From contig JBFLKU010000029.1 of NCBI GenBank assembly GCA_040883315.1, positions 1 to 64,000 of the forward strand: a stretch of DNA of 64,000 nucleotides, given 5' to 3'. Below, in pieces: positions 2,617 to 57,098 of the stretch. The notes beneath the pieces are model-generated. The model ran no database searches. It was not told the DNA's origin and saw only the letters and a program-made list of their open reading frames with translations. How positions within the stretch are numbered: the first letter of the stretch is position 1; each line of letters opens with the position of its first letter. The DNA is from Eubacteriales bacterium (GTDB lineage Bacteria; Bacillota; Clostridia; Christensenellales; UMGS416). The translations under genes were made by a program, and so were the position numbers.

Positions 2617-2660
2617 TTATTTCTCCTCCATATGTGCGCACAATGGATTTATGACCGTTA

Positions 2661-2675
2661 GTCATATTTTCATTA
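2661..2675. promoter_or_regulatory. Palindrome ATGACcgttaGTCAT upstream of the TetR start, a candidate TetR operator
   Basis: Inverted repeat with 5-bp arms about 45 nt upstream of the TetR start codon. Confidence 0.25.
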
Positions 2676-2762
2676 TAAGGCTTTCTTCCGGTAAAAGAAA
2701 TAGTCAATTGTTGTGCATTGGTCAGTTTCATCATTTTGCTTTTTCAAAAATTTAATAAAATA

Positions 2763-2771
2763 TGGTATAAT
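2763..2771 (+). promoter_or_regulatory. Extended -10 element TGgTATAAT, putative promoter for the 2784 ORF (possibly a leaderless mRNA)
   Basis: TGnTATAAT match 12 nt upstream of ATG 2784. No SD precedes that ATG. Confidence 0.3.
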
Positions 2772-2783
2772 TATATATTACGT

Positions 2784-4046
2784 ATGAGGAGGATATTTAT
2801 TATTTTAATACAGTATATTACAAATGGAAACCGTATAGAATTTAAAAAACTGGAAGTTACTCAAACTTCTTTGTTTAAACCGAAAGCATTTGATGCATTC
2901 GATATCAATCTAATTGATTTGAGTACTGAATCTATATGGAAAAATGATGGTGATTACAAAGGAATAAATATTGGAAATGAAATTAATGATTTAAATATGA
3001 TAATTAGTAATGGAACAAAATCAAAAATAATTATTTTGTTACCACAAAATTGTACTTTTAATTATGGGAAAGCTAGTAATGGTAAACTCGTTAAAAAAAT
3101 AGCATTAAAGGATAATATAGGGACATTACAAAACATATTATTTAGAAATTTGGCATATGTTGGATGGGATCAGCATAGAAAACTTTTGCTATATGGACAA
3201 ACACAGACTAAAATTAATAATGAGGTGGCCTATGCTGACTTCTCTTTTATCCAATTAAGTTTTCTTAATAAAGATAAAGTTAAACCAATAACATTTGATA
3301 GTTCTGGGAAGTATATTACAACAGTAGAAATGCATAAAAAAATATTAACTACATTAGATATAGGAAATTCCGAAGAAAAAATAATGAATTTTCTTACAGA
3401 AATTAATTTAATAAATGAAAAGGAAATAGAACCGGAATGGTTTAAAGATATAGAGAGATTAGACGACAAAGAACTAAATGAAGAAAAAAGTAAAATTGAT
3501 ATTCAAATTGATAGATTAAATAAAAAAAGAAATGATATAGAACTCAAGCTAGACAAGAATAAAAAAATAAAATCTATTCTTTATACAAATGGCAATGAAC
3601 TAGCAAACCAGATTTTAGAGATACTTGAAGAAATATTAGAATGTGATTTAACTGAATTTGAAGATAAACATAAGGAAGATTTTAAAATAGAAAAAGATGA
3701 TAATATTTTCATTGGAGAAATAAAGGGTGTAGGAAATAACGTTCAAAACAAGAATGTTTCTCAGCTTGATGTTCATGTTCAGGAGGAAATAGATGCTCGA
3801 AACGAAGAAGAATTAGAAAATATTAAAGTTAAAGGTATATTGATAATGAACACATTCCGAAATATTATACCTAATGAAAGAAAAAATATTAGCAAACAAC
3901 AAGGTGACCTTGCAAAAAGAAATGGTTCATTAGTTATTACTACACTACAATTATTAGAATTATATGAAAAATATTTATCCGGTGAAATATCAAATAAAGA
4001 CATATTAAATATTTTTAAAACCCAAATAGGTATACTAAAACTATAG
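2784..4046 (+). CDS. Hypothetical protein with a central coiled-coil, in an AT-rich island
   Basis: Long ORF (track 2718-4046, first ATG 2784) in markedly AT-rich DNA. The central region 'LDDKELNEEKSKIDIQIDRLNKKRNDIELKLDKNKK...' is a heptad-like coiled-coil. The C-terminal part contains 'DDNIFIGEIKG', a possible D...ExK. I do not recognise the family. Confidence 0.5.
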   Translation: MRRIFIILIQYITNGNRIEFKKLEVTQTSLFKPKAFDAFDINLIDLSTESIWKNDGDYKGINIGNEINDLNMIISNGTKSKIIILLPQNCTFNYGKASNGKLVKKIALKDNIGTLQNILFRNLAYVGWDQHRKLLLYGQTQTKINNEVAYADFSFIQLSFLNKDKVKPITFDSSGKYITTVEMHKKILTTLDIGNSEEKIMNFLTEINLINEKEIEPEWFKDIERLDDKELNEEKSKIDIQIDRLNKKRNDIELKLDKNKKIKSILYTNGNELANQILEILEEILECDLTEFEDKHKEDFKIEKDDNIFIGEIKGVGNNVQNKNVSQLDVHVQEEIDARNEEELENIKVKGILIMNTFRNIIPNERKNISKQQGDLAKRNGSLVITTLQLLELYEKYLSGEISNKDILNIFKTQIGILKL

Positions 4047-4214
4047 TAAATCAAATGAATTTTAAATGACTATATGCTTATTATTACCATATTTTGTTTA
4101 GTAACAGCCCCATGTGGGTATATTAATAAATACAAATTAGATACAAATTACAGAGCAATTGATAGGGCGTTGGCAAATTGAGAGAGTACTTGAAAGCAGA
4201 TGGAGGGTGCACTG

Positions 4215-5033
4215 ATGAGATTTGTAACCGACAACAATTTTGCAAAAAAGCATGCAGAGGAACAATACAAAATAGCCGAAGACTACTATGAAAACGGTGA
4301 GTATGAGCTGGCTGTGAAGTATTTTAAGAATGCTGCCAAATCCGGACACGCAAAATCACAAAACAAGCTAGGCATATGCTACGCCACAGGCAGAGGAGTG
4401 GTGCAGAGCTATTATAATGCCCTGCAAAGCTATATGCAGGCGGCAGAGGCAGGATACGCTGGGGCAATACACAACGTCGGCCTTTGCTACTATCATGGCT
4501 ACGGCGTAGAAAAATCCTACCCTACAGCTTTAGTATACTTCAGACAGGCTGCTGAAATGGGCTACGCAAAATCTCAATATAATCTCGCCTGCTGCTACTC
4601 CGAGGGCAAGGGAGTGCAAAAGGACGAAAAAACGGCATTTGAATGGTACAAAAGTGCCGCTAGCCAAGGCGACGCCAACGCACAGTATAGCCTAGGCGTG
4701 TGCTACCAAAACGGGCTGGGAACAGAGCCCGACTACAAAAAGGCAATAAAATGGTATGAAAACGCAGCAGAGAATGACGACGCAGTGGCAATGTATAACC
4801 TTGGCTGCATGTATAATATCGGCGGCGAAGCCGAGCAGGACGACGACATGGCACATGAATACTTCGCAAAATCTGCAGAGCTGGGATATGCTCCTGCAAT
4901 GTATAATCTAGGAATGTGCTATGAACACGGCGTTGGGGTTGACGCGGACATGGATGTTGCATTAAAATGGTACAAAAAGGCAGCCGACCTAGGCGACGAA
5001 CTGGCAGCCGAAAAACTGAATGAACTGGAGTAA
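4215..5033 (+). CDS. Sel1-repeat (SLR/TPR-like) protein
   Basis: Repeated ~36-aa units '...KSQ(N/Y)(K/N)LG(I/V)CY..G.GV..(D/S)Y..A..WY.KAA..G.A.AQY.LG.CY'. GGAGGG RBS 7 nt before ATG 4215. Confidence 0.85.
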   Translation: MRFVTDNNFAKKHAEEQYKIAEDYYENGEYELAVKYFKNAAKSGHAKSQNKLGICYATGRGVVQSYYNALQSYMQAAEAGYAGAIHNVGLCYYHGYGVEKSYPTALVYFRQAAEMGYAKSQYNLACCYSEGKGVQKDEKTAFEWYKSAASQGDANAQYSLGVCYQNGLGTEPDYKKAIKWYENAAENDDAVAMYNLGCMYNIGGEAEQDDDMAHEYFAKSAELGYAPAMYNLGMCYEHGVGVDADMDVALKWYKKAADLGDELAAEKLNELE

Positions 5034-7109: not shown

Positions 7110-8072
7110 ATGAAAGCATTAAAAACATTTTTGGCAGTACTGCTGACCATAGCCATCGTTTTGGTATCTATTTGCACGGTGGTCTCTGTGAATTCCAGAG
7201 TTGTGTTTGCAAATCCTCAGTTTTATAGGGTATATTTGCCAAAACTTGGCGTATATGATGCAGTGTATGATATTACGATGGATTATATCGTTAATCAGGC
7301 ATTAGCGAGCGAAGGCCTGCACGGGCAGGAAGACATGATTTATGATGTGCTTACAGAGACCATTTCAAAGGAACAGTTCAGCGAATATCTGGGTCAGATG
7401 CTAGGCGATGCGCTGGATAGCATTGCATACAACAGAGGCGAAATGCACATGCCCATCAGGGACATTATAGATGATTTATTAGCTGCCATCGAAAACTCTT
7501 CTCAAATGGATGATATGGACGACGAGCAAAAAGAAATGGCGATGAATATAGTCAGAGATAAATTGTCTCTGCCTGATGGCGTGGACGATACTCTGCGGGA
7601 GTATCTTTACTACGGCTTTCAATATGACGAGCAGAAGATGGAAAAGATAGACTATGTGCTGGACGAGCAGGTGCATAGCTATGCAGTGCGGCTGACCAAC
7701 ACAGCAATACTTTCCTCCATTGTCTTAGCTCTGCTTATTGCATTATTATACTTGGTGTCGATGGATAAAAGAAACAGATTCCTAAAAATTCTCTCCGGCA
7801 TAAATATATTTTATATTGTTATCTATTTCATAGTAATCGGCACTTTGATTACAGCACTGTGCTTGGTGCCAGTGTGGCTGCAGGCTGACAAAGACAGTAT
7901 GCTAAATATGGTATCTACAGCTATCACTGATTTGGTGAAAAGCGTGCTGTATCTATCCATCATCGCAACTGTAATTTTGATTACACTAAAAATCATTTTC
8001 AAGCAGCTGATAAAGGCAAATAACACGAAAGCCCAAACTGCTATTTCCGAAAACGAGGATGATGCCTATTAA
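7110..8072 (+). CDS. Hypothetical membrane protein (N-terminal TM plus C-terminal TM cluster)
   Basis: RBS GGAGG 8 nt upstream. Hydrophobic N-terminus and a C-terminal polytopic region. No recognised family. Confidence 0.55.
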   Translation: MKALKTFLAVLLTIAIVLVSICTVVSVNSRVVFANPQFYRVYLPKLGVYDAVYDITMDYIVNQALASEGLHGQEDMIYDVLTETISKEQFSEYLGQMLGDALDSIAYNRGEMHMPIRDIIDDLLAAIENSSQMDDMDDEQKEMAMNIVRDKLSLPDGVDDTLREYLYYGFQYDEQKMEKIDYVLDEQVHSYAVRLTNTAILSSIVLALLIALLYLVSMDKRNRFLKILSGINIFYIVIYFIVIGTLITALCLVPVWLQADKDSMLNMVSTAITDLVKSVLYLSIIATVILITLKIIFKQLIKANNTKAQTAISENEDDAY

Positions 8073-8097
8073 GAGAGACCCGCCTATACTTGAAATG

Positions 8098-8128
8098 AAA
8101 AATACCACCTTATAAAAGGTGGTATTTA
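8098..8128. terminator. Bidirectional intrinsic terminator
   Basis: Perfect stem AAATACCACCTT-ataa-AAGGTGGTATTT flanked by A and T runs. It lies between convergent genes. Confidence 0.7.
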
Positions 8129-8162
8129 TTATATACAGTATTTTGCGTTTCTTGGCGTGCTG

Positions 8163-8783
8163 CTATTCTGCTGCTGCTTCCTCTGCTACTGCTGGTACTA
8201 CCACTGCATCATCATCCACAGTTTCTTCCACGAATTTAGCACCGTGTGTTATAACACATACTTGTGACTCCATAGGAGACATAATCTCGATGTTTTTGTC
8301 CTTTGTGATATCTAAATCGCTTACAAGCACAGAATCACCGAGTTTGTATTTAGATACATCAACATCAACATGGTCTATCAAATGCTTCGGCAATGCCAAA
8401 ATCTCTATTTCGTTCATTTGCTCCTGCAAAACTTCGTCCTTGCCGACAGATTCCTTATTCAAATAAATAATAGGCACATTTACTTTAATTTTTTCACCAG
8501 TTGTCAATGCCTGAAAATCCATATGAATTGTCTTGTATGTCAAAGTCTCTCTTTGAGATTCCTTGAAAATCGCCAGCTGTTCTTTGCCTTCAATATCCAA
8601 AAGCACCTGTGAACCCATAGACTGTGCCTTCATAAACTTCAGCACATCGATATGATCGATTTGAATACTTATCGGCTCTATATTATGCCCATATACCGTG
8701 GCAGGCACAAATCCACTCTCTCTGATTTTTTTTGCTTTTTGAGATAAATCTCTTTTCTTACATAACAATTTATATACTTCCAT
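8163..8783 (-). CDS. rplY: 50S ribosomal protein L25 / general stress protein Ctc
   Basis: About 206 aa with an acidic C-terminal tail. The N-terminal domain 'LL.IEG..Q.A..KE.Q.E.....IHMDFQ' is typical of L25/Ctc. Confidence 0.85.
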   Translation of the reverse strand: MEVYKLLCKKRDLSQKAKKIRESGFVPATVYGHNIEPISIQIDHIDVLKFMKAQSMGSQVLLDIEGKEQLAIFKESQRETLTYKTIHMDFQALTTGEKIKVNVPIIYLNKESVGKDEVLQEQMNEIEILALPKHLIDHVDVDVSKYKLGDSVLVSDLDITKDKNIEIMSPMESQVCVITHGAKFVEETVDDDAVVVPAVAEEAAAE

Positions 8784-9016
8784 TGTTATCCTCCAATAAA
8801 ATTTTTTATTATATCTATTATATCTTATACCCTAATTAGGAAAATTACAAATTTATTTCAATAATTAGCCTGCTTTGCGTCCATTTTCGCAGAGTATAAG
8901 GTGCATAAATATTTGCATATTCATGTCCCAAAAGAACCGCTAACAATATTCTAAATCAATGGTTTTACCAGCATACCAGGGCATATATTCGCTAGATTAA
9001 TTTTATTGTATTCTAC

Positions 9017-9045
9017 ATTTGACTTTATGTTTTTTAATAATTATA
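9017..9045 (+). promoter_or_regulatory. Sigma-70-type promoter (TTGACT-17-TATACT)
   Basis: -35 TTGACT 9017-9022, 17-nt spacer, -10 TATACT 9040-9045. About 45 nt upstream of ATG 9092. Confidence 0.4.
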
Positions 9046-9091
9046 CTTAAATTATCAGCAATAAATAAATATACAACTAATGGAGGAATAT

Positions 9092-10189
9092 ATGGATAAG
9101 GATAATTCAGCTGCACTGCAAAACATTGAAGATGAATACAATAAACTGAATATAAAGAGAAATGATATAGAAATATGGGAAGACGGAATGCGAACCACCG
9201 GACAGAAGAATACTTTCGAATGGTGGTACACAGATGCGGAGTTTGAGGACGGCACTACAATTGTGGTGGTGTTTTTCACCAAGTTTGGCTTTGATGTGAA
9301 AGGCCCTGCCCACCCTACCGCTACAATAGATATCACATTGCCAGACGGCACCAAAATAATCCAGCAGGTGTGCGAGCAAAAAGGACAGGTGATAGATGCA
9401 TCCCGCAAAATGTGCGATGTGAAGGTGAAAGAGAGCTACATAAAATATATAGATGGTGACTACGAGCTTCAGTATAAGGATGAAAAAATAGAATACCGTG
9501 CCCATATGAAATCGCTGCTTCCCATGTGGAGACCGGAGACTGGGCATATGTTTTTCGGGAAAAAGCAGGAGGTCTTTTTTGCATGGATGCCGGCTCAGCC
9601 ATCCTGCAAAGTAGACGCCACCCTCTCGGTGGACGGCAAACAAAAAAACATAAAGGGCATAGGATACCACGACCACAACTGGGGAAATATATCCATGAAC
9701 AAGGTGATGAACCACTGGTACTGGGGCAGAGCAAATATTGGCGGCTACACCATAATAACCAGTGATATAATATCCGAGAAAAAATATGGATATAAAAGGC
9801 TTCCTATTTTTATGATAGCAAAAGACGGAAAAATAATAGAAACGGATTTGACCAAAACAAAAGTAATCCGTCAGGATACATATCAGCACGAAGTAACAGG
9901 CAAATTCATGGATAATCATCTAACCTTTATCAATTATCATGATGGTGCAGAATATAAAGTGGAATTTATGCGGAAAAGAGATATCGTGGCTGCCAGCCTG
10001 CTAGAACAGCTGCCTAAATCCAAAAGATTTATCGCAAAACTAATAGGTGCAAACCCCACCTATGTGAGGATACTGGGCGATGTGCGGCTGACTATCACAA
10101 AGGACGGCAAATCCGATGTGATAGAGCATGAGGGGCTATGGGAACAGATGTTTTTCGGCAGCAATAAGCATGCCATAATAAATCCATAG
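9092..10189 (+). CDS. CrtC/AttH-like lipocalin-fold protein (hydroxyneurosporene-synthase family domain)
   Basis: 'YHDHNWGN' and 'WYW' motifs as in CrtC/AttH-type proteins. GGAGG 6 nt before ATG 9092. Family call is tentative. Confidence 0.5.
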   Translation: MDKDNSAALQNIEDEYNKLNIKRNDIEIWEDGMRTTGQKNTFEWWYTDAEFEDGTTIVVVFFTKFGFDVKGPAHPTATIDITLPDGTKIIQQVCEQKGQVIDASRKMCDVKVKESYIKYIDGDYELQYKDEKIEYRAHMKSLLPMWRPETGHMFFGKKQEVFFAWMPAQPSCKVDATLSVDGKQKNIKGIGYHDHNWGNISMNKVMNHWYWGRANIGGYTIITSDIISEKKYGYKRLPIFMIAKDGKIIETDLTKTKVIRQDTYQHEVTGKFMDNHLTFINYHDGAEYKVEFMRKRDIVAASLLEQLPKSKRFIAKLIGANPTYVRILGDVRLTITKDGKSDVIEHEGLWEQMFFGSNKHAIINP

Positions 10190-11807: not shown

Positions 11808-12268
11808 ACATAGGTATTTTGATACATTCCGATACCGGCAACACATTGTCTGTGGCTCAGAGGATACAGGAGCAGCTAGAGAAAGACGGACATACAGCAA
11901 AAATAGAAAAAGTGACCGCTATAAAAGGCGATCCAAAAAACGGACTGCATTCCACATTATCCAGCATCCCCAAAATAGAGGGCTATGACAAAATAATAGT
12001 CGGCGCACCTATCAATGGGTTTGCACTGAGCAGAGCCATGAAAGAATATCTGGCTCTGCATGGTGAATTTCAAAACAAAGACGTAAACTGCTTTGTAACA
12101 CAGCACTTCAAGCGATCGTTTCTGGGCGGAAACCAAGGCATAAAGTACATGCTAGGCACTATCAGGGCAAGAGGCGGCAAAATAAAAAGCACTGCAGTAG
12201 TCCACTGGTCATCATTAAAAAGAGATGCCGAAATAAAAGAAGCTATAGAAGCTATGGCTGACATATAG
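11804..12268 (+). CDS. Flavodoxin-family protein
   Basis: N-terminal 'IGILIHSDTGNT' FMN-phosphate loop. 4-nt overlap with the upstream TetR. Confidence 0.8.
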   Translation: MNIGILIHSDTGNTLSVAQRIQEQLEKDGHTAKIEKVTAIKGDPKNGLHSTLSSIPKIEGYDKIIVGAPINGFALSRAMKEYLALHGEFQNKDVNCFVTQHFKRSFLGGNQGIKYMLGTIRARGGKIKSTAVVHWSSLKRDAEIKEAIEAMADI

Positions 12269-12276
12269 GAGGAAAC

Positions 12277-12660
12277 ATGAAAAAAGCATTAAAAACAGTA
12301 CTGTTTGTTATACTCGGTATAATAGCGTTGGGGCTGGTTTTGGCGGGCTTCGGCACTCTTGGTCTAAAGGAAGCAACGGCACTGGAGATTGCGGCTATTG
12401 ATTTATCACAGGTGCCCGACGGCAAATACGAGGGCAGCTATCAAAACGGTCGCTGGAGCAACGACGTGGAGGTGACGGTGAAGGACAGCAGCATAGAGGA
12501 CATTCGGATTATAAAGTCTGGTAACTCATCGCAGATAGCTGTGCTGGAAGAGATATCAAATGCCGTGATTGAACAGCAAAAGGTGAATATAGACGCCGTA
12601 TCCGGTGCCACAGCCACTACGAATTCTTTGCTGAAAGCTATAGAGAATGCATTTGAATAA
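12277..12660 (+). CDS. FMN-binding domain protein (membrane-anchored)
   Basis: Signal anchor plus 'DAVSGATATTNSL' FMN_bind motif, as in RnfG/NqrC. Confidence 0.75.
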   Translation: MKKALKTVLFVILGIIALGLVLAGFGTLGLKEATALEIAAIDLSQVPDGKYEGSYQNGRWSNDVEVTVKDSSIEDIRIIKSGNSSQIAVLEEISNAVIEQQKVNIDAVSGATATTNSLLKAIENAFE

Positions 12661-12670
12661 TAAAATTAAG

Positions 12671-12697
12671 CACAGGATTTATATCCTGTGTTTTTTT
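12671..12697 (+). terminator. Intrinsic terminator
   Basis: CACAGGAT-ttatat-ATCCTGTG then TTTTTTT. Confidence 0.75.
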
Positions 12698-12710
12698 CAT
12701 GGTGGCTTGT

Positions 12711-13523
12711 TCAGTATTCTTTAAGGCGTGCCATTGCATCATCTACTATTTTTCTGGTCTCTAAAAAATTATATGCACAGAAAACCAAAATTACAGCATT
12801 GGAAATAGAATCGAAAAGCCCATAAAACACATAAGATGCTGCCTCTTTTAGATAGCTATCTGCTGTTAATGCAGATTTATCAATCCCCATCTCGCTCAAT
12901 GTATCATCTGACAAGCTTTCCAGCTCTACAGTGGCGTCCAGCTCTGCTACATACACTTCCATCTCGCTTATATCTGTAGTATCCTCTGTATACCACGGAA
13001 ATAGTGCAAACTCAAGAACCATAAATATGGCTGCCAAAGCTGCTACTTTCAGGAATATGCTTTTCGTTTCATTTGTTGCCATGTCTATAGCGTCTGCAAA
13101 GCTGTGAGTAGAAATTACAGCTATAAGTGCAACCGCCTCGAATGTCATTATGACGAAATCCCAGACAAAAATATATGCGCCTACTATTCTGTAGCCATAT
13201 ATTAAACCAAAAGCTTTTATCCAAGGCAGAATTAACCTTGTAATAATGATTATAATAAGAACCTTAAGTGTATTTTTGAACAATCCTTTTGAAAACCAAT
13301 TATCGCTTATGTCTCCATTGCACGCTTCAAAGGTATATGTGACAAAGGGACCCATCAGCAATATTATAAATATCATTTTAATAATAGCCGCACTGGTAGT
13401 ATAGTCCATATACTCACCTGCAAATATCCCTGCCAGCATATACGGCACCATTCCTATTACCAGCGACAAAAGCAAAATCCATGGCTTTGTTAAAAGCGTC
13501 ATAAGTGTTTTTCTTATTATCAT
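12711..13523 (-). CDS. Hypothetical polytopic membrane protein with an acidic C-terminal region
   Basis: Multiple TM helices and a codon usage consistent with neighbours. No family recognised. Confidence 0.55.
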   Translation of the reverse strand: MIIRKTLMTLLTKPWILLLSLVIGMVPYMLAGIFAGEYMDYTTSAAIIKMIFIILLMGPFVTYTFEACNGDISDNWFSKGLFKNTLKVLIIIIITRLILPWIKAFGLIYGYRIVGAYIFVWDFVIMTFEAVALIAVISTHSFADAIDMATNETKSIFLKVAALAAIFMVLEFALFPWYTEDTTDISEMEVYVAELDATVELESLSDDTLSEMGIDKSALTADSYLKEAASYVFYGLFDSISNAVILVFCAYNFLETRKIVDDAMARLKEY

Positions 13524-16173: not shown

Positions 16174-16419
16174 ATGAGTACTAATAAAAAATTCGCGTTA
16201 AAATGTAGTGTTTGTGGCAATATTAATTTTGAATATGATGAAAAATTATACTCATCTATTACAGAGGCAAGTAAAGTAAAATGTACTATTTGCAACAAAG
16301 AATATTCAAAAAAAGAATTAGAAGATGCTAACTTGAATTTAATTAGAGAGGAAGTAATTGAGTTATCAAAAGATGAACTTAAAAGAGCTCTAAAGAATTC
16401 AGGATTCAAGATTAAATAA
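16174..16419 (+). CDS. Small zinc-ribbon protein (2x CxxC) with a C-terminal coiled-coil, AT-rich cassette gene 1
   Basis: 'KCSVCGN...KVKCTICNK'. GGAGG RBS. Very low GC. Confidence 0.55.
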   Translation: MSTNKKFALKCSVCGNINFEYDEKLYSSITEASKVKCTICNKEYSKKELEDANLNLIREEVIELSKDELKRALKNSGFKIK

Positions 16420-16429
16420 GGAGATAAAA

Positions 16430-16960
16430 ATGTCATTTGATTGGCAAATTTCAGTTGGAGATATTATCGCATTTGTATCACTAATTGGTTCAATAATCAT
16501 GTTTGTTCTTACTACAATTAAGCAAACCAAGAGTAAAAGTAATGCTGAGGGAGCAAGCTCTTTCAATGATGCTGCTAAGAAATATTACGAATTAATGGTA
16601 GATATTACACCAAAGCTTCTGAATAGAACTAAGGTAGAAGAAAAAAAGGAAAAAGCAGAATGCGATGCAGCTGTTGTTAGAACGGGTAAGTCAAAATGGG
16701 TGATTAAAATATTTAATAAAGGCAATTCTAATGCTAATAATGTCGCTTTTAAATATTTATCCGAAGACGGTCCCGCAATTATAGGCTCAGTTAAAGAAAT
16801 TTTCCCAATTGAGTTAATTGAGCCACAAAAAAATGTAGACTATCATTTTATGGTATTTATGAGCACTAAAAGCTCTAGTTGGAAATATGAACTTACTTGG
16901 ACAAATGATGATGGTACTCCAGGAAGCAAAAAAGGCGTAATAACCTTACCTCTAACATAA
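16430..16960 (+). CDS. Hypothetical membrane-anchored protein, AT-rich cassette gene 2
   Basis: AAGGAG RBS, one N-terminal TM and a beta-rich C-terminal domain. 10-nt gap from gene 1. Confidence 0.55.
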   Translation: MSFDWQISVGDIIAFVSLIGSIIMFVLTTIKQTKSKSNAEGASSFNDAAKKYYELMVDITPKLLNRTKVEEKKEKAECDAAVVRTGKSKWVIKIFNKGNSNANNVAFKYLSEDGPAIIGSVKEIFPIELIEPQKNVDYHFMVFMSTKSSSWKYELTWTNDDGTPGSKKGVITLPLT

Positions 16961-32983: not shown

Positions 32984-33838
32984 TTAACTATTTGATTCAT
33001 CATCATGCAGCATATCGCTCCATCTGGCTTGCAGCTTCTGTTTATCTTTTTCTTCTAAAACCGGACGTCTAACCATATACATTTTATTAATATATACAAT
33101 TATAAAAGCTGATACTATCCCAATTAGCGCCAATACTGCCAGAGCAATAACAACAATCAAAATCACATTACCAGTATTTATTCCAATGAAATAATGTTGG
33201 TTATCATTTTTCACCATAAAATATCCTATTAGACATCCTATAGTGAAAAATATAAATTGAATCAAAGACACTTTTAAGAAATTCTTAATACCTATTCTAA
33301 AGGCATTTTTTAGACCCTTCCCAAAATTCTCTTCTACCACAACCGTTACTGAGGCGATCGATAAATAAGAATAGCATATAATTGTAGATACTAAAAATAC
33401 CGTGCCCAGCACTATATAGGCAGCAATAGAACCTCCGCCACTAAACATTAACATCAAAAATATCATAAACGCAATAAAATAAACTATATAGTATGGTAGC
33501 AACACTATAATACTGGTAACAAATATTTTCCACCAGTTCTTTTTAAGCCCGCGACTAATCCATCCTTTTTCCGCACTGACATTTTTAGCTACTTCATATA
33601 TATAATTATATAAAACCGGAAAATAAATGAACTGTGCAAAGAACGCACAAAGAATGAACAAAAATCTCGATGCAGAAGTACTAAACAAAGCATTAATGTC
33701 GACATATGAAAATGAATTAAGCATAGGTTGATTTATAATTACCGGAATGTAGCAAAGCAATAATAATATTATAGGAATGATACATCCTAATATAATCATT
33801 GGATTTTTAAGAACTGTTTTAATTGAATCTTTTAGCAT
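32984..33838 (-). CDS. Hypothetical polytopic membrane protein
   Basis: 7 TM. Similar architecture to 21570-22427. Confidence 0.55.
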   Translation of the reverse strand: MLKDSIKTVLKNPMIILGCIIPIILLLLCYIPVIINQPMLNSFSYVDINALFSTSASRFLFILCAFFAQFIYFPVLYNYIYEVAKNVSAEKGWISRGLKKNWWKIFVTSIIVLLPYYIVYFIAFMIFLMLMFSGGGSIAAYIVLGTVFLVSTIICYSYLSIASVTVVVEENFGKGLKNAFRIGIKNFLKVSLIQFIFFTIGCLIGYFMVKNDNQHYFIGINTGNVILIVVIALAVLALIGIVSAFIIVYINKMYMVRRPVLEEKDKQKLQARWSDMLHDDESNS

Positions 33839-56313: not shown

Positions 56314-57087
56314 TTAAAATCCTCCGTTTTGATTTGTGCTAATTATTTCTTTTAATTTCTCTATAGTTAAAGTATCATTTCTTCTTCTGTGTATCATTCT
56401 ATGGCAATTAGAACATACTGGTACAACATTTTTTAATGCACTATCAATAAACATATTGGCATCTTGCTCTTCATATGTATATATTGGCTTTTGATGATGT
56501 ATCTCTATGTATCCATCACCTCTAGCTCCATATTTAGCTTTAAAATCAAATTTACAAGCATCACATAAAATTACGCCATTATGCGTGTAATATTCTATCG
56601 CAATATTTCTTAGTTTAGCTGACCTTTCATATACTTTATTTCTTATTGTTTTTCTGCTTCCCTCATATACAAAAATATTTTCATCATATACTAAAGGTTT
56701 TCTTTTTCTCTCGATTGAATCTGTAATCTCTACTAATGTATCTTCTATATCTATATTTTCAAAATCATTGTCTATCAAATATTCGAAAATATCTTTGTTC
56801 TGTTCAATATACTCTTTCCCTTTTTCTGTAATAGTATGCGAACCATTCCTTTGCCCTTTAATCGTTGTATAGCCTAGTTGGTCGTCAAGTTTATGATGGG
56901 ATACCAAATTCCTAACAATTTGGGTGAATCTTGCATCATTCCTACTTCCGTAGTTTTTTAAATCTTCTCCCGTTGGATTAATTAAATTTGATAATTCCAA
57001 AATCAAGTCACTAGTTTTTATATTCGGATTATTACTAATTACATACAAAGCCGGAATTACTAATTCTTTTTCAGAAACTCTAGACAT
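56314..57087 (-). CDS. HNH-family endonuclease, candidate Type II restriction endonuclease (AT-rich island)
   Basis: C-terminal 'CDAC...GYIEIHHQKPI...VVPVCSNCHRMIH' HNH. An 11-nt gap separates it from the upstream MTase gene. About 28% GC versus about 48% in the flanking DNA. Confidence 0.7.
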   Translation of the reverse strand: MSRVSEKELVIPALYVISNNPNIKTSDLILELSNLINPTGEDLKNYGSRNDARFTQIVRNLVSHHKLDDQLGYTTIKGQRNGSHTITEKGKEYIEQNKDIFEYLIDNDFENIDIEDTLVEITDSIERKRKPLVYDENIFVYEGSRKTIRNKVYERSAKLRNIAIEYYTHNGVILCDACKFDFKAKYGARGDGYIEIHHQKPIYTYEEQDANMFIDSALKNVVPVCSNCHRMIHRRRNDTLTIEKLKEIISTNQNGGF

Positions 57088-57098
57088 TATCTTCTCCT

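Follow-up and report, generated by a model that had tools for sequence, protein, structure and literature searches.

A solitary gene at positions 2718 to 4046 of contig JBFLKU010000029.1 from a Eubacteriales bacterium (assembly GCA_040883315.1) was analysed within the first 64,000 nucleotides (nt) of that contig, a stretch referred to here as the window. The open reading frame (ORF) lies on the forward strand and is the single gene of an AT-rich island. The GC content in steps of 100 nt dropped from 0.42-0.47 to 0.24 near position 2700 and returned to 0.36-0.46 past about 4100; it was 0.18-0.30 within about 2650-4150 and 0.42-0.53 on either side. Among the 51 ORFs of the window, the coding sequence has the lowest GC content (0.252, z = -2.95; mean, 0.409 +/- 0.053) and the lowest GC content at third codon positions (0.161, z = -3.18; mean, 0.438 +/- 0.087). 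A first-pass annotation of the DNA had reported this ORF, its low GC content and its setting between TetR and MMPL genes on the left and a Sel1 gene on the right, and all of this was borne out; the exact TetR protein adjoins the MMPL gene in L091, the same locus in a second assembly. The best explanation is that the island carries one horizontally acquired gene, whose product is a cytoplasmic protein of about 415 amino acids (aa). The gene and protein of the family to which it belongs are called FAM, and residues of the window protein are counted from ATT 2799. The features of the locus are as follows.

2650-4150, no strand: AT-rich island, edges approximate, from the 100-nt GC steps
2743-2771, forward: promoter-like site (-35 TTCAAA, 17-nt spacer, TGn-extended -10 TATAAT); top-scoring in the region, 10/12 with the TG; a consensus match only
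2787-2792, forward: Shine-Dalgarno (SD) sequence AGGAGG, read directly, immediately 3' of ATG 2784
2799-4046, forward: coding sequence, 415 aa from ATT 2799; alternatives ATT 2802 (414 aa) and ATG 2784 (420 aa)
2799-3413, forward: N-domain, aa 1-205, predicted alpha/beta domain with a fold resembling class I glutamine amidotransferases; the part that varies most within the family
3465-3581, forward: long helix, aa 223-261, presumed coiled-coil oligomerisation element
3585-4043, forward: C-domain, aa 263-415, modelled PD-(D/E)xK nuclease with the topology of the FokI cleavage domain
3678-3680, forward: codon of D294, predicted catalytic Asp ('PD' position), at the start of strand 294-299
3717-3725, forward: codons of E307-I308-K309, predicted (D/E)xK, in strand 302-310
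2038-2616, reverse: TetR regulator, left flank
4215-5033, forward: Sel1-repeat protein, right flank, followed by a metallophosphoesterase

The start site was compared by lining up the DNA upstream of the codons for a conserved 'IQ' across 60+ homologous loci. These loci have a GGAGG-type SD sequence 6-10 nt upstream of an ATG, which stands 1-2 codons before 'IQ'. In the window, TTA occupies the position of the relatives' ATG, and the perfect AGGAGG, at a position equivalent to that of the SD in the homologous loci, is followed after 6 and 9 nt by ATT 2799 and ATT 2802. As judged from this alignment, the protein probably starts at one of these two ATT codons behind the strong SD. The ATG at 2784, used by the gene call on the Logan assembly, has no SD and lies 12 nt past the -10 element. 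The NCBI record gives a protein of 391 aa from TTG 2871, and such a start would remove the conserved first beta-strand.

The extended -10 TGgTATAAT at 2763-2771, ending 12 nt before ATG 2784, is present as described in the first-pass annotation, and a TTCAAA -35 element was found at 17 nt from it. The statement that the gene lacks an SD was wrong, and the leaderless expression that had been proposed is unsupported, since the SD stands where it does in the homologous loci. The AT-rich stretch contains 14 promoter-like matches, compared with 11.9 +/- 3.4 in shuffled sequences, indicating no enrichment.

Inspection of the island revealed neither conserved terminal repeats nor a tRNA or recombinase. 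A 14-nt inverted pair (2754-2767 and 4085-4098, 13/14 complementary) brackets the gene at p ~0.025 against mononucleotide shuffles; it was rejected as a pair of element ends, having no shared consensus or position. By the same measure, 16 of 71 homologous loci have a significant inverted pair, where about 5% would be expected, and several of these pairs are terminator palindromes. The pair in the window probably derives from AT-rich or terminator-like sequence and not from the ends of an element. A look-up of the exact TetR protein returned the same organism only, the Sel1 protein had no record, and a metagenome scan with TetR gave no match. For the Sel1 gene itself, ATG 4215, with GGAGG 7 nt upstream, is a likelier start than ATG 4200, and the 272 aa in the gene call of the other assembly fit this start.

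Predicted modules of the protein

The structure was modelled with AlphaFold2 from an alignment of 104 family sequences, and secondary structure was assigned with DSSP. The mean predicted local distance difference test score was 92.1, with no segment below 50. The predicted TM-score was 0.56, as expected if the domains sit on a flexible or oligomerising stalk. The model shows three modules: a non-catalytic N-domain resembling class I glutamine amidotransferases (GATase1), a coiled coil and a C-terminal PD-(D/E)xK domain.

The modelled C-domain has the alpha-beta-beta-beta-alpha-beta core fold of the PD-(D/E)xK superfamily. The most conserved motif of the family is 'GEIKG', of which G306, E307, K309 and G310 are invariant in the 104 sequences. 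D294, in 'EDF', is likewise invariant, lies 13 residues before E307 and has the canonical geometry with E307 and K309 in the model. A weak PD-(D/E)xK resemblance had been noted previously; the kind of nuclease and the ExK within GEIKG were identified correctly, but the Asp was placed in 'DDN', and the 'DD' of DDNIF falls in variable columns. The segment TTLQLLELY, which had been tentatively likened to a RecB motif, forms a conserved helix (T382, L385, L386, E390) beyond the final strand of the core and is no RecB QxxxY motif.

A Foldseek search with the model, one of the checks suggested with the first-pass annotation, gave FokI as the closest three-dimensional similarity (E = 6e-4, probability 1.0). 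A fold search of BFVD gave weak matches to restriction endonucleases only. The invariant or near-invariant residues Q322, H326, Q328 and Y330, followed by Q368, L371, A372, R374 and N375, lie on two helices that correspond in order to alpha4 and alpha5 of FokI, which form the FokI dimer interface. The FokI domain used as a query is 98% identical to the FokI nuclease domain of a cloning vector and belongs to PF09254. The hhalign comparison with this single sequence was colinear and non-significant, and the comparison with an alignment of 21 PF09254 proteins was colinear over 87 columns, with 'NENVSQLDVHYQxY' opposite 'NLPISQADEMERY'. Neither the window protein nor any of the 104 members matched PF09254 by Pfam. 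Because the PF09254 score was not significant, the C-domain is called FokI-like in fold and is not placed in PF09254 (Endonuc-FokI_C). The family protein is very probably a nuclease.

The N-domain had been described as unrecognised. In the model it has the flavodoxin-like GATase1 fold, and structural comparison indicated a resemblance to the class I glutamine amidotransferases Pdx2 and HisH and also to the non-catalytic trimerisation domain of GH42 beta-galactosidase, the N-domain of IFT52 and ThuA. No Cys or His within residues 1-205 is conserved in at least 85% of the family, indicating that the Cys-His-Glu triad of the amidotransferases is absent. In the model, strand 76-80 is followed by 'PQN' and another strand, with no nucleophile-elbow helix. 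An assembly or binding role is possible, as in the non-catalytic look-alikes. The conserved residues of the N-domain are Q5, D32, W47, P82, N84, K104, E133, T137, S170, K172 and T174, and the polar ones could line a binding site. The N-domain of the family is acidic (median isoelectric point, 5.5), and the net charge of the whole protein is about -16. In the window copy the charge of the N-domain is reversed relative to the family (isoelectric point, 9.0).

The two domains are joined by one helix of about 39 aa, as assigned by DSSP on the model and supported by the hydrophobicity profile of the family. The heptad positions are a = 230, 237, 244 and 251 and d = 233, 240, 247 and 254, and the periodicity power of the family profile peaks at 3.5 residues. 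Asn254, at a d position, is invariant in the family. The coiled coil of the first-pass annotation is thus present, but with about four clean heptads it is shorter than the roughly 70 aa claimed for it.

Distribution and genomic context of the family

The gene is not the orphan that it had been taken for. At E <= 0.001, 364 relatives came up in a word-indexed search; the 120 of them that were listed have 391-442 aa and no Pfam domain, all names shown are 'hypothetical protein', and, apart from the query's own record, they share 34-42% identity with the query over 88-100% of its length. A profile of the 104 members, searched against 1.84 billion cluster representatives, matched 2351 of them at E <= 1e-3, 1103 at E <= 1e-10 and 478 at E <= 1e-30, and the best 150 were nearly all full length. 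The family has a uniform architecture and a length of about 400-430 aa.

The window protein was assigned to no family by Pfam, NCBIfam, PHROGs or PADLOC, where the only matches were chance coiled-coil ones such as FlbB (E = 0.012). The PADLOC scan, which had been proposed as a check for a defence protein, was run with PADLOC-DB v2.0.0, including its Shedu, Lamassu, Hachiman, Abi, HEC and PDC models, and returned zero families at E <= 1. Searches of Pfam and PADLOC with the 104 members gave nothing consistent, the PADLOC matches being scattered, single and at E >= 0.002, and searches of the PDB by sequence and by profile gave chance matches only. The literature on FokI-like, coiled-coil or embedded defence proteins contained general precedents and no description of the family itself. 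Neither the source records that were checked nor these four collections give the family a name, and it may have been described elsewhere. We know of no other protein that unites a GATase1-like domain with a coiled coil and a FokI-fold domain.

Among 76 species-level genomes, the hosts are mainly metagenome-assembled genomes of Bacillota (Clostridia, Lachnospiraceae, Oscillospiraceae, Erysipelotrichales, Bacilli and Mollicutes), with three Deferribacteraceae and single cases in Elusimicrobia, Cloacimonadota, Spirochaetota, Neisseriaceae and Campylobacteraceae. A cultured carrier is Erysipelothrix inopinata DSM 15511 (L070). The PLSDB collection gave one match, on an unannotated 2.1-Mb replicon of Fusobacterium vincentii. 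The distribution is patchy and of the horizontal-transfer type.

Chromosomal context was studied by calling ORFs in the 76 species-level loci and in those collected earlier, clustering the neighbours and labelling large clusters with hidden Markov models (HMMs). In 20 of the 76 loci, FAM lies between hsdS and hsdR of a type I restriction-modification (R-M) operon, in the same orientation as both. The order is Fic-hsdM-(small membrane protein)-hsdS-FAM-(0-2 variable genes)-hsdR, and some junctions of FAM overlap or are 10 nt apart. About six further loci have R-M-like or Fic genes nearby. Defence genes, PrrC and DarTG2 among them, are known to be embedded at the junction of hsdS and hsdR, and 'guilt by embedding' is an accepted predictor of defence genes (10.1101/2024.01.29.577857; PMC12255303). 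In a neighbour-joining tree, the R-M-embedded members are concentrated in one part, although not exclusively.

In L007, two diverged FAM paralogues (8001-9260 and 12137-13366) occupy one type I R-M locus beside AbiH, in the order hsdM-hsdS-FAM-tyrosine recombinase-hsdS-...-FAM-AbiH-hsdR. This locus looks like a phase-variable hsdS shufflon with stacked cargo. The possibility that FAM replaces the nuclease of HsdR was considered and rejected; the HsdR of L001 was judged, from its translation, to keep its own D...EAK motif. The R-M operon type is itself conserved, with an HsdR of about 1097 aa that carries an N-terminal DUF4145 and with variable extra genes of 100-370 aa between hsdS and hsdR. 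Operons of the Fic-hsdM type were found at loci L001, L012, L019, L025-L027, L031, L033, L037, L052, L053, L059, L060, L063, L067 and L080.

The other neighbours include Bro-N (separated by a 4-nt gap), a WYL regulator, KilA-N and RhuM-like proteins, recombinases, type II methyltransferases, a DpnII enzyme, PDC-S22, MADS genes and plain housekeeping genes. MobV relaxases accounted for 5 of 150 neighbours sampled.

FAM was also found on 24 IMG/VR contigs, and in about 20 of these it lies 0-6 genes upstream of terS, terL and the portal gene; PHROGs matches bore out this position for four contigs. The gene upstream of FAM in L106 encodes a late-type transcriptional regulator (phrog_36-like). The slot between this regulator and terS, at 7386-9749 of L106, was compared among 80 gut phages (L116-L195) whose terL is 83-98% identical to that of L106. 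The slot was empty in some phages and otherwise held 69 cargo clusters among 109 ORFs (e.g., in L163 and L168), with FAM in three contigs: L106, L107 and IMGVR_UViG_3300045988_031737 (L098 and L136). Pfam left 59 of the 69 cargo types without a match; among the others are TIR_2, HicB, a TRADD-N-associated transmembrane domain and several domains of unknown function. None of the 69 has an HNH, GIY-YIG or LAGLIDADG domain. This is the signature of a moron or defence hotspot beside the packaging end, and it resembles the old/tin hotspot of P2. The hypervariable slot of these gut prophages may be a mine for phage-borne defence or counter-defence genes. A search of 50,697 GenBank phage records gave no match to the family.

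In all 73 loci compared, FAM had a lower GC content than its flanks; the gap averaged 9.5 points and reached 30, so the compositional foreignness noted in the window holds for the relatives, none of which has the gene at native GC content. Divergence was measured as the median pairwise identity within 15 operons of one R-M type, with the following result.

HsdR: 72%
HsdM: 75%
HsdS: 28%
FAM, whole: 39%
FAM, N-domain: 32%
FAM, C-domain: 48%

The identity of FAM was not correlated with that of HsdR (r = 0.09), indicating that FAM is either exchanged independently or very fast-evolving, chiefly in its N-domain. Such divergence of the N-domain, which comes near that of HsdS, is what would be expected of a recognition or sensor module. 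The family moves as single-gene cargo among chromosomes, type I R-M operons, temperate phages and mobilisable elements.

A second AT-rich island of the window, at 56314-58262 on the reverse strand (GC content, 0.27-0.29), carries a type II R-M-like pair, indicating that AT-rich islets of this genome do carry defence cargo. Its two genes are as follows.

57099-58262, reverse: D12/Dam-class N6-adenine methyltransferase (Pfam, 5e-33; PADLOC MTase_II, 9e-60)
56314-57087, reverse: HNH-type endonuclease (HNH, 3e-4; PADLOC mREase_IV, 8e-6)

Two other stretches of the window gave no Pfam or PADLOC match. An AT-rich islet at 16174-16960 on the forward strand (GC content, about 0.29) has two genes, encoding a protein of 81 aa with two CxxC pairs (zinc-ribbon-like) and one of 176 aa with an N-terminal hydrophobic helix. 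An ORF of 284 aa at 32984-33838 on the reverse strand (GC content, 0.31; z = -1.9) is compositionally foreign.

Proposed role in defence and alternative explanations

We propose that FAM acts as a stand-alone anti-phage or anti-mobile-element nuclease. The chains would be held by the coiled coil as dimers or larger oligomers. One catalytic domain by itself would, as in FokI, only nick DNA or be inactive, and a double-strand cut would need two paired C-domains. The fast-evolving acidic N-domain would be a sensor or an autoinhibitory module, at which an infection cue would release or align the nuclease domains. The cue would probably be a phage protein or a small ligand and not a DNA sequence, a choice favoured by the acidic N-domain and the net charge of the protein, although this is a weak argument. 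The outcome may be either selective destruction of the invading DNA or abortive infection.

On the basis of its genomic context, defence is the role that we lean towards for the family. A stand-alone defence protein had already been suggested in the first-pass annotation, and this suggestion gained support from the type I R-M operons and the hypervariable prophage slot, although not from any defence HMM. The specific mechanism, in which the nuclease domains are switched on by pairing, is put forward tentatively, as one that falls short of an even chance. The fullest form of the proposal is somewhat more doubtful still: an undescribed single-gene immune system, widespread in Bacillota of the gut and rumen and in their prophages, in which a dead GATase1-like sensor of a phage protein or small molecule gates the pairing of FokI-type domains via the coiled coil, and which in type I R-M operons would provide a second layer when restriction is evaded.

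Several observations weigh against a defence role or its mechanism. No defence HMM of PADLOC-DB v2.0.0 matches the window protein. The 20 R-M-embedded cases are not independent; they fall in part into a single clade of the neighbour-joining tree, and their operons are all of one type. About two-thirds of the chromosomal loci have no obvious defence neighbours, and in 50 sampled non-R-M loci the two genes on either side of FAM are a mixture of mobile, R-M and housekeeping genes. The window copy is solitary between the TetR and Sel1 genes. In the phages, FAM comes first in the late operon, an unexpected position for a gene that should be active in a lysogen. The hhalign comparison with the 21 PF09254 proteins gave an E value of 0.033 and a probability of 1.5%, and sequence homology with FokI is not established. 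The oligomeric state, the cutting of DNA and the role of the N-domain are predicted.

One alternative, a sub-case of defence, is a restriction enzyme without a methylase, of the type IV or a type IIS-like kind, whose N-domain reads DNA and whose FokI-like domains cut at a distance. A FokI-type cleavage module is typical of type IIS enzymes, the N-domain is as hypervariable as specificity domains are, and in the window copy it is basic. There is no cognate methyltransferase in the window; the nearest is 53 kb away and is paired with its own HNH enzyme. Embedding of modification-dependent systems in type I R-M loci is reported for V. cholerae VPI-2 (PMC11411939). However, the N-domain of the family as a whole is acidic, the GATase1-like fold is not known as a reader of DNA or of modified bases, and no SRA, winged helix-turn-helix (wHTH) or other reader domain is among the top fold matches. 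A type IIS system in the strict sense would consist of a recognition domain and a cognate methyltransferase, whereas here the N-domain is not a wHTH and the flanking genes encode TetR and Sel1 proteins. A DNA-reading enzyme of this kind is considered unlikely.

Whatever the role of the family, the window copy may be a decaying, non-functional remnant. Its canonical ATG is replaced by TTA, the substitutions E133G, Y330E and K356I affect positions that are 92-95% conserved in the family, and the charge of its N-domain is reversed. Due to the lost ATG and these substitutions, the activity of the window copy is uncertain. On the other hand, the frame of 415 codons is intact, all 25 invariant residues, including every catalytic residue, are retained, the perfect SD has ATT codons 6 and 9 nt downstream, an in-frame ATG is also present at 2784, and a good extended -10 promoter-like site lies upstream. 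Decay is judged improbable, to about the same degree as a DNA-reading enzyme.

The main rival to defence is a selfish, free-standing homing-type endonuclease, which would cut gene-less alleles near the insertion point (5' of hsdR or upstream of terS) and be copied in by repair, with no benefit to the host. Enzymes of the PD-(D/E)xK superfamily with this way of life exist, e.g., I-Ssp6803I. FAM is a single-gene AT-rich insertion with neither recombinase nor repeats, it recurs between conserved genes (hsdS and hsdR, regulator and terS), its phylogeny is uncoupled from that of the flanking HsdR, and it occurs in phages, chromosomes and mobilisable elements alike. The flanks, however, are highly diverse, with unrelated neighbours at many loci, the window among them. 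The fold of the N-domain is not one known to bind DNA, the domain is acidic in the family as a whole, and a protein of 415 aa with a coiled coil exceeds the usual size of homing enzymes. The 69 unrelated cargo types of the phage slot, with no classical homing family among them, indicate a moron or defence hotspot rather than the target of one enzyme. Homing is rated as quite unlikely, a little below the two preceding alternatives.

FAM could also be a guard or accessory of type I R-M systems like PrrC, held inactive on the Hsd complex and unleashed by a phage anti-restriction protein. PrrC is found almost exclusively embedded in type I R-M operons (10.1101/2024.01.29.577857). The R-M-embedded members of the family are in exactly the PrrC slot and are often translationally coupled. 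Most members, including the window copy, have no adjacent R-M system, FAM occurs in phages and beside relaxases, its phylogeny is independent of HsdR, and it has no domain in common with PrrC. The window copy is not in an hsdS/hsdR slot: all ORFs of at least 180 aa in the 64 kb have at most 518 aa, and no hsd gene was noticed. With no HsdR-sized ORF present, a guard of this kind cannot apply to the window copy, and for the family it is very unlikely. An accessory nuclease of phage packaging or late functions, analogous to the HNH proteins that assist terminases, would account for the position near terS and terL, but it is hardly credible. Close phages mostly lack FAM and have the slot empty or filled with unrelated cargo, other members of the family are located within R-M operons, next to relaxases or at bare sites of the chromosome, and GenBank phages yielded no match.

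Comparison with known systems

If the proposed defence role is correct, FAM represents an unnamed defence family that comprises several hundred sequence clusters or more and is missing from both Pfam-A and PADLOC v2. It would then contribute a new sensor fold to the 'sensor plus PD-(D/E)xK' immune proteins and a further type of cargo to the embedding hotspot between hsdS and hsdR. A compact FokI-type module that is predicted to dimerise naturally and has a swappable N-domain may also be of interest to enzyme engineers.

FokI and its type IIS relatives, among them N.BspD6I and the small subunit of R.BspD6I, a free-standing FokI-type catalytic subunit, share the D...(D/E)xK arrangement with the family. 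The helix that follows the ExK strand is colinear with alpha4 of FokI ('SQLDVHYQxY' versus 'GQADEMQRY'), as are the next strand and helix, within the 87 aligned columns. From this likeness to the FokI catalytic domain, the same need for two catalytic domains per double-strand break is predicted. Unlike these enzymes, the family has no triple-wHTH recognition domain, no partner methyltransferase and no significant PF09254 match; its catalytic domain comes with a coiled coil and a GATase1-like domain instead.

PrrC and DarTG2 occupy the same hsdS/hsdR slot as a quarter of the relatives, but the proteins are unrelated to FAM, which is mostly found outside R-M operons and matches no PDC or HEC model of PADLOC. 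Lamassu-Fok combines LmuA, a FokI-type nuclease effector, with the coiled-coil SMC protein LmuB in a two- or three-gene system with an SMC ATPase. FAM would resemble it in pairing a FokI-type nuclease as a defence effector with coiled-coil elements, but it is one gene with no ATPase and no PADLOC Lmu match.

Shedu (SduA) follows the same logic, with a single gene whose product joins a variable N-terminal module to a conserved PD-(D/E)xK effector and acts as an oligomer; for FAM, the oligomer is predicted. The family differs from Shedu in the fold of its N-domain and in its FokI-type nuclease sub-fold, and it matches neither DUF4263 nor the Shedu models of PADLOC. The nuclease fold is classical, and single-gene defences that join a sensor to a PD-(D/E)xK nuclease are already known from Shedu and others. 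The family is a good candidate for a new single-gene defence nuclease, which would be no surprise in principle.

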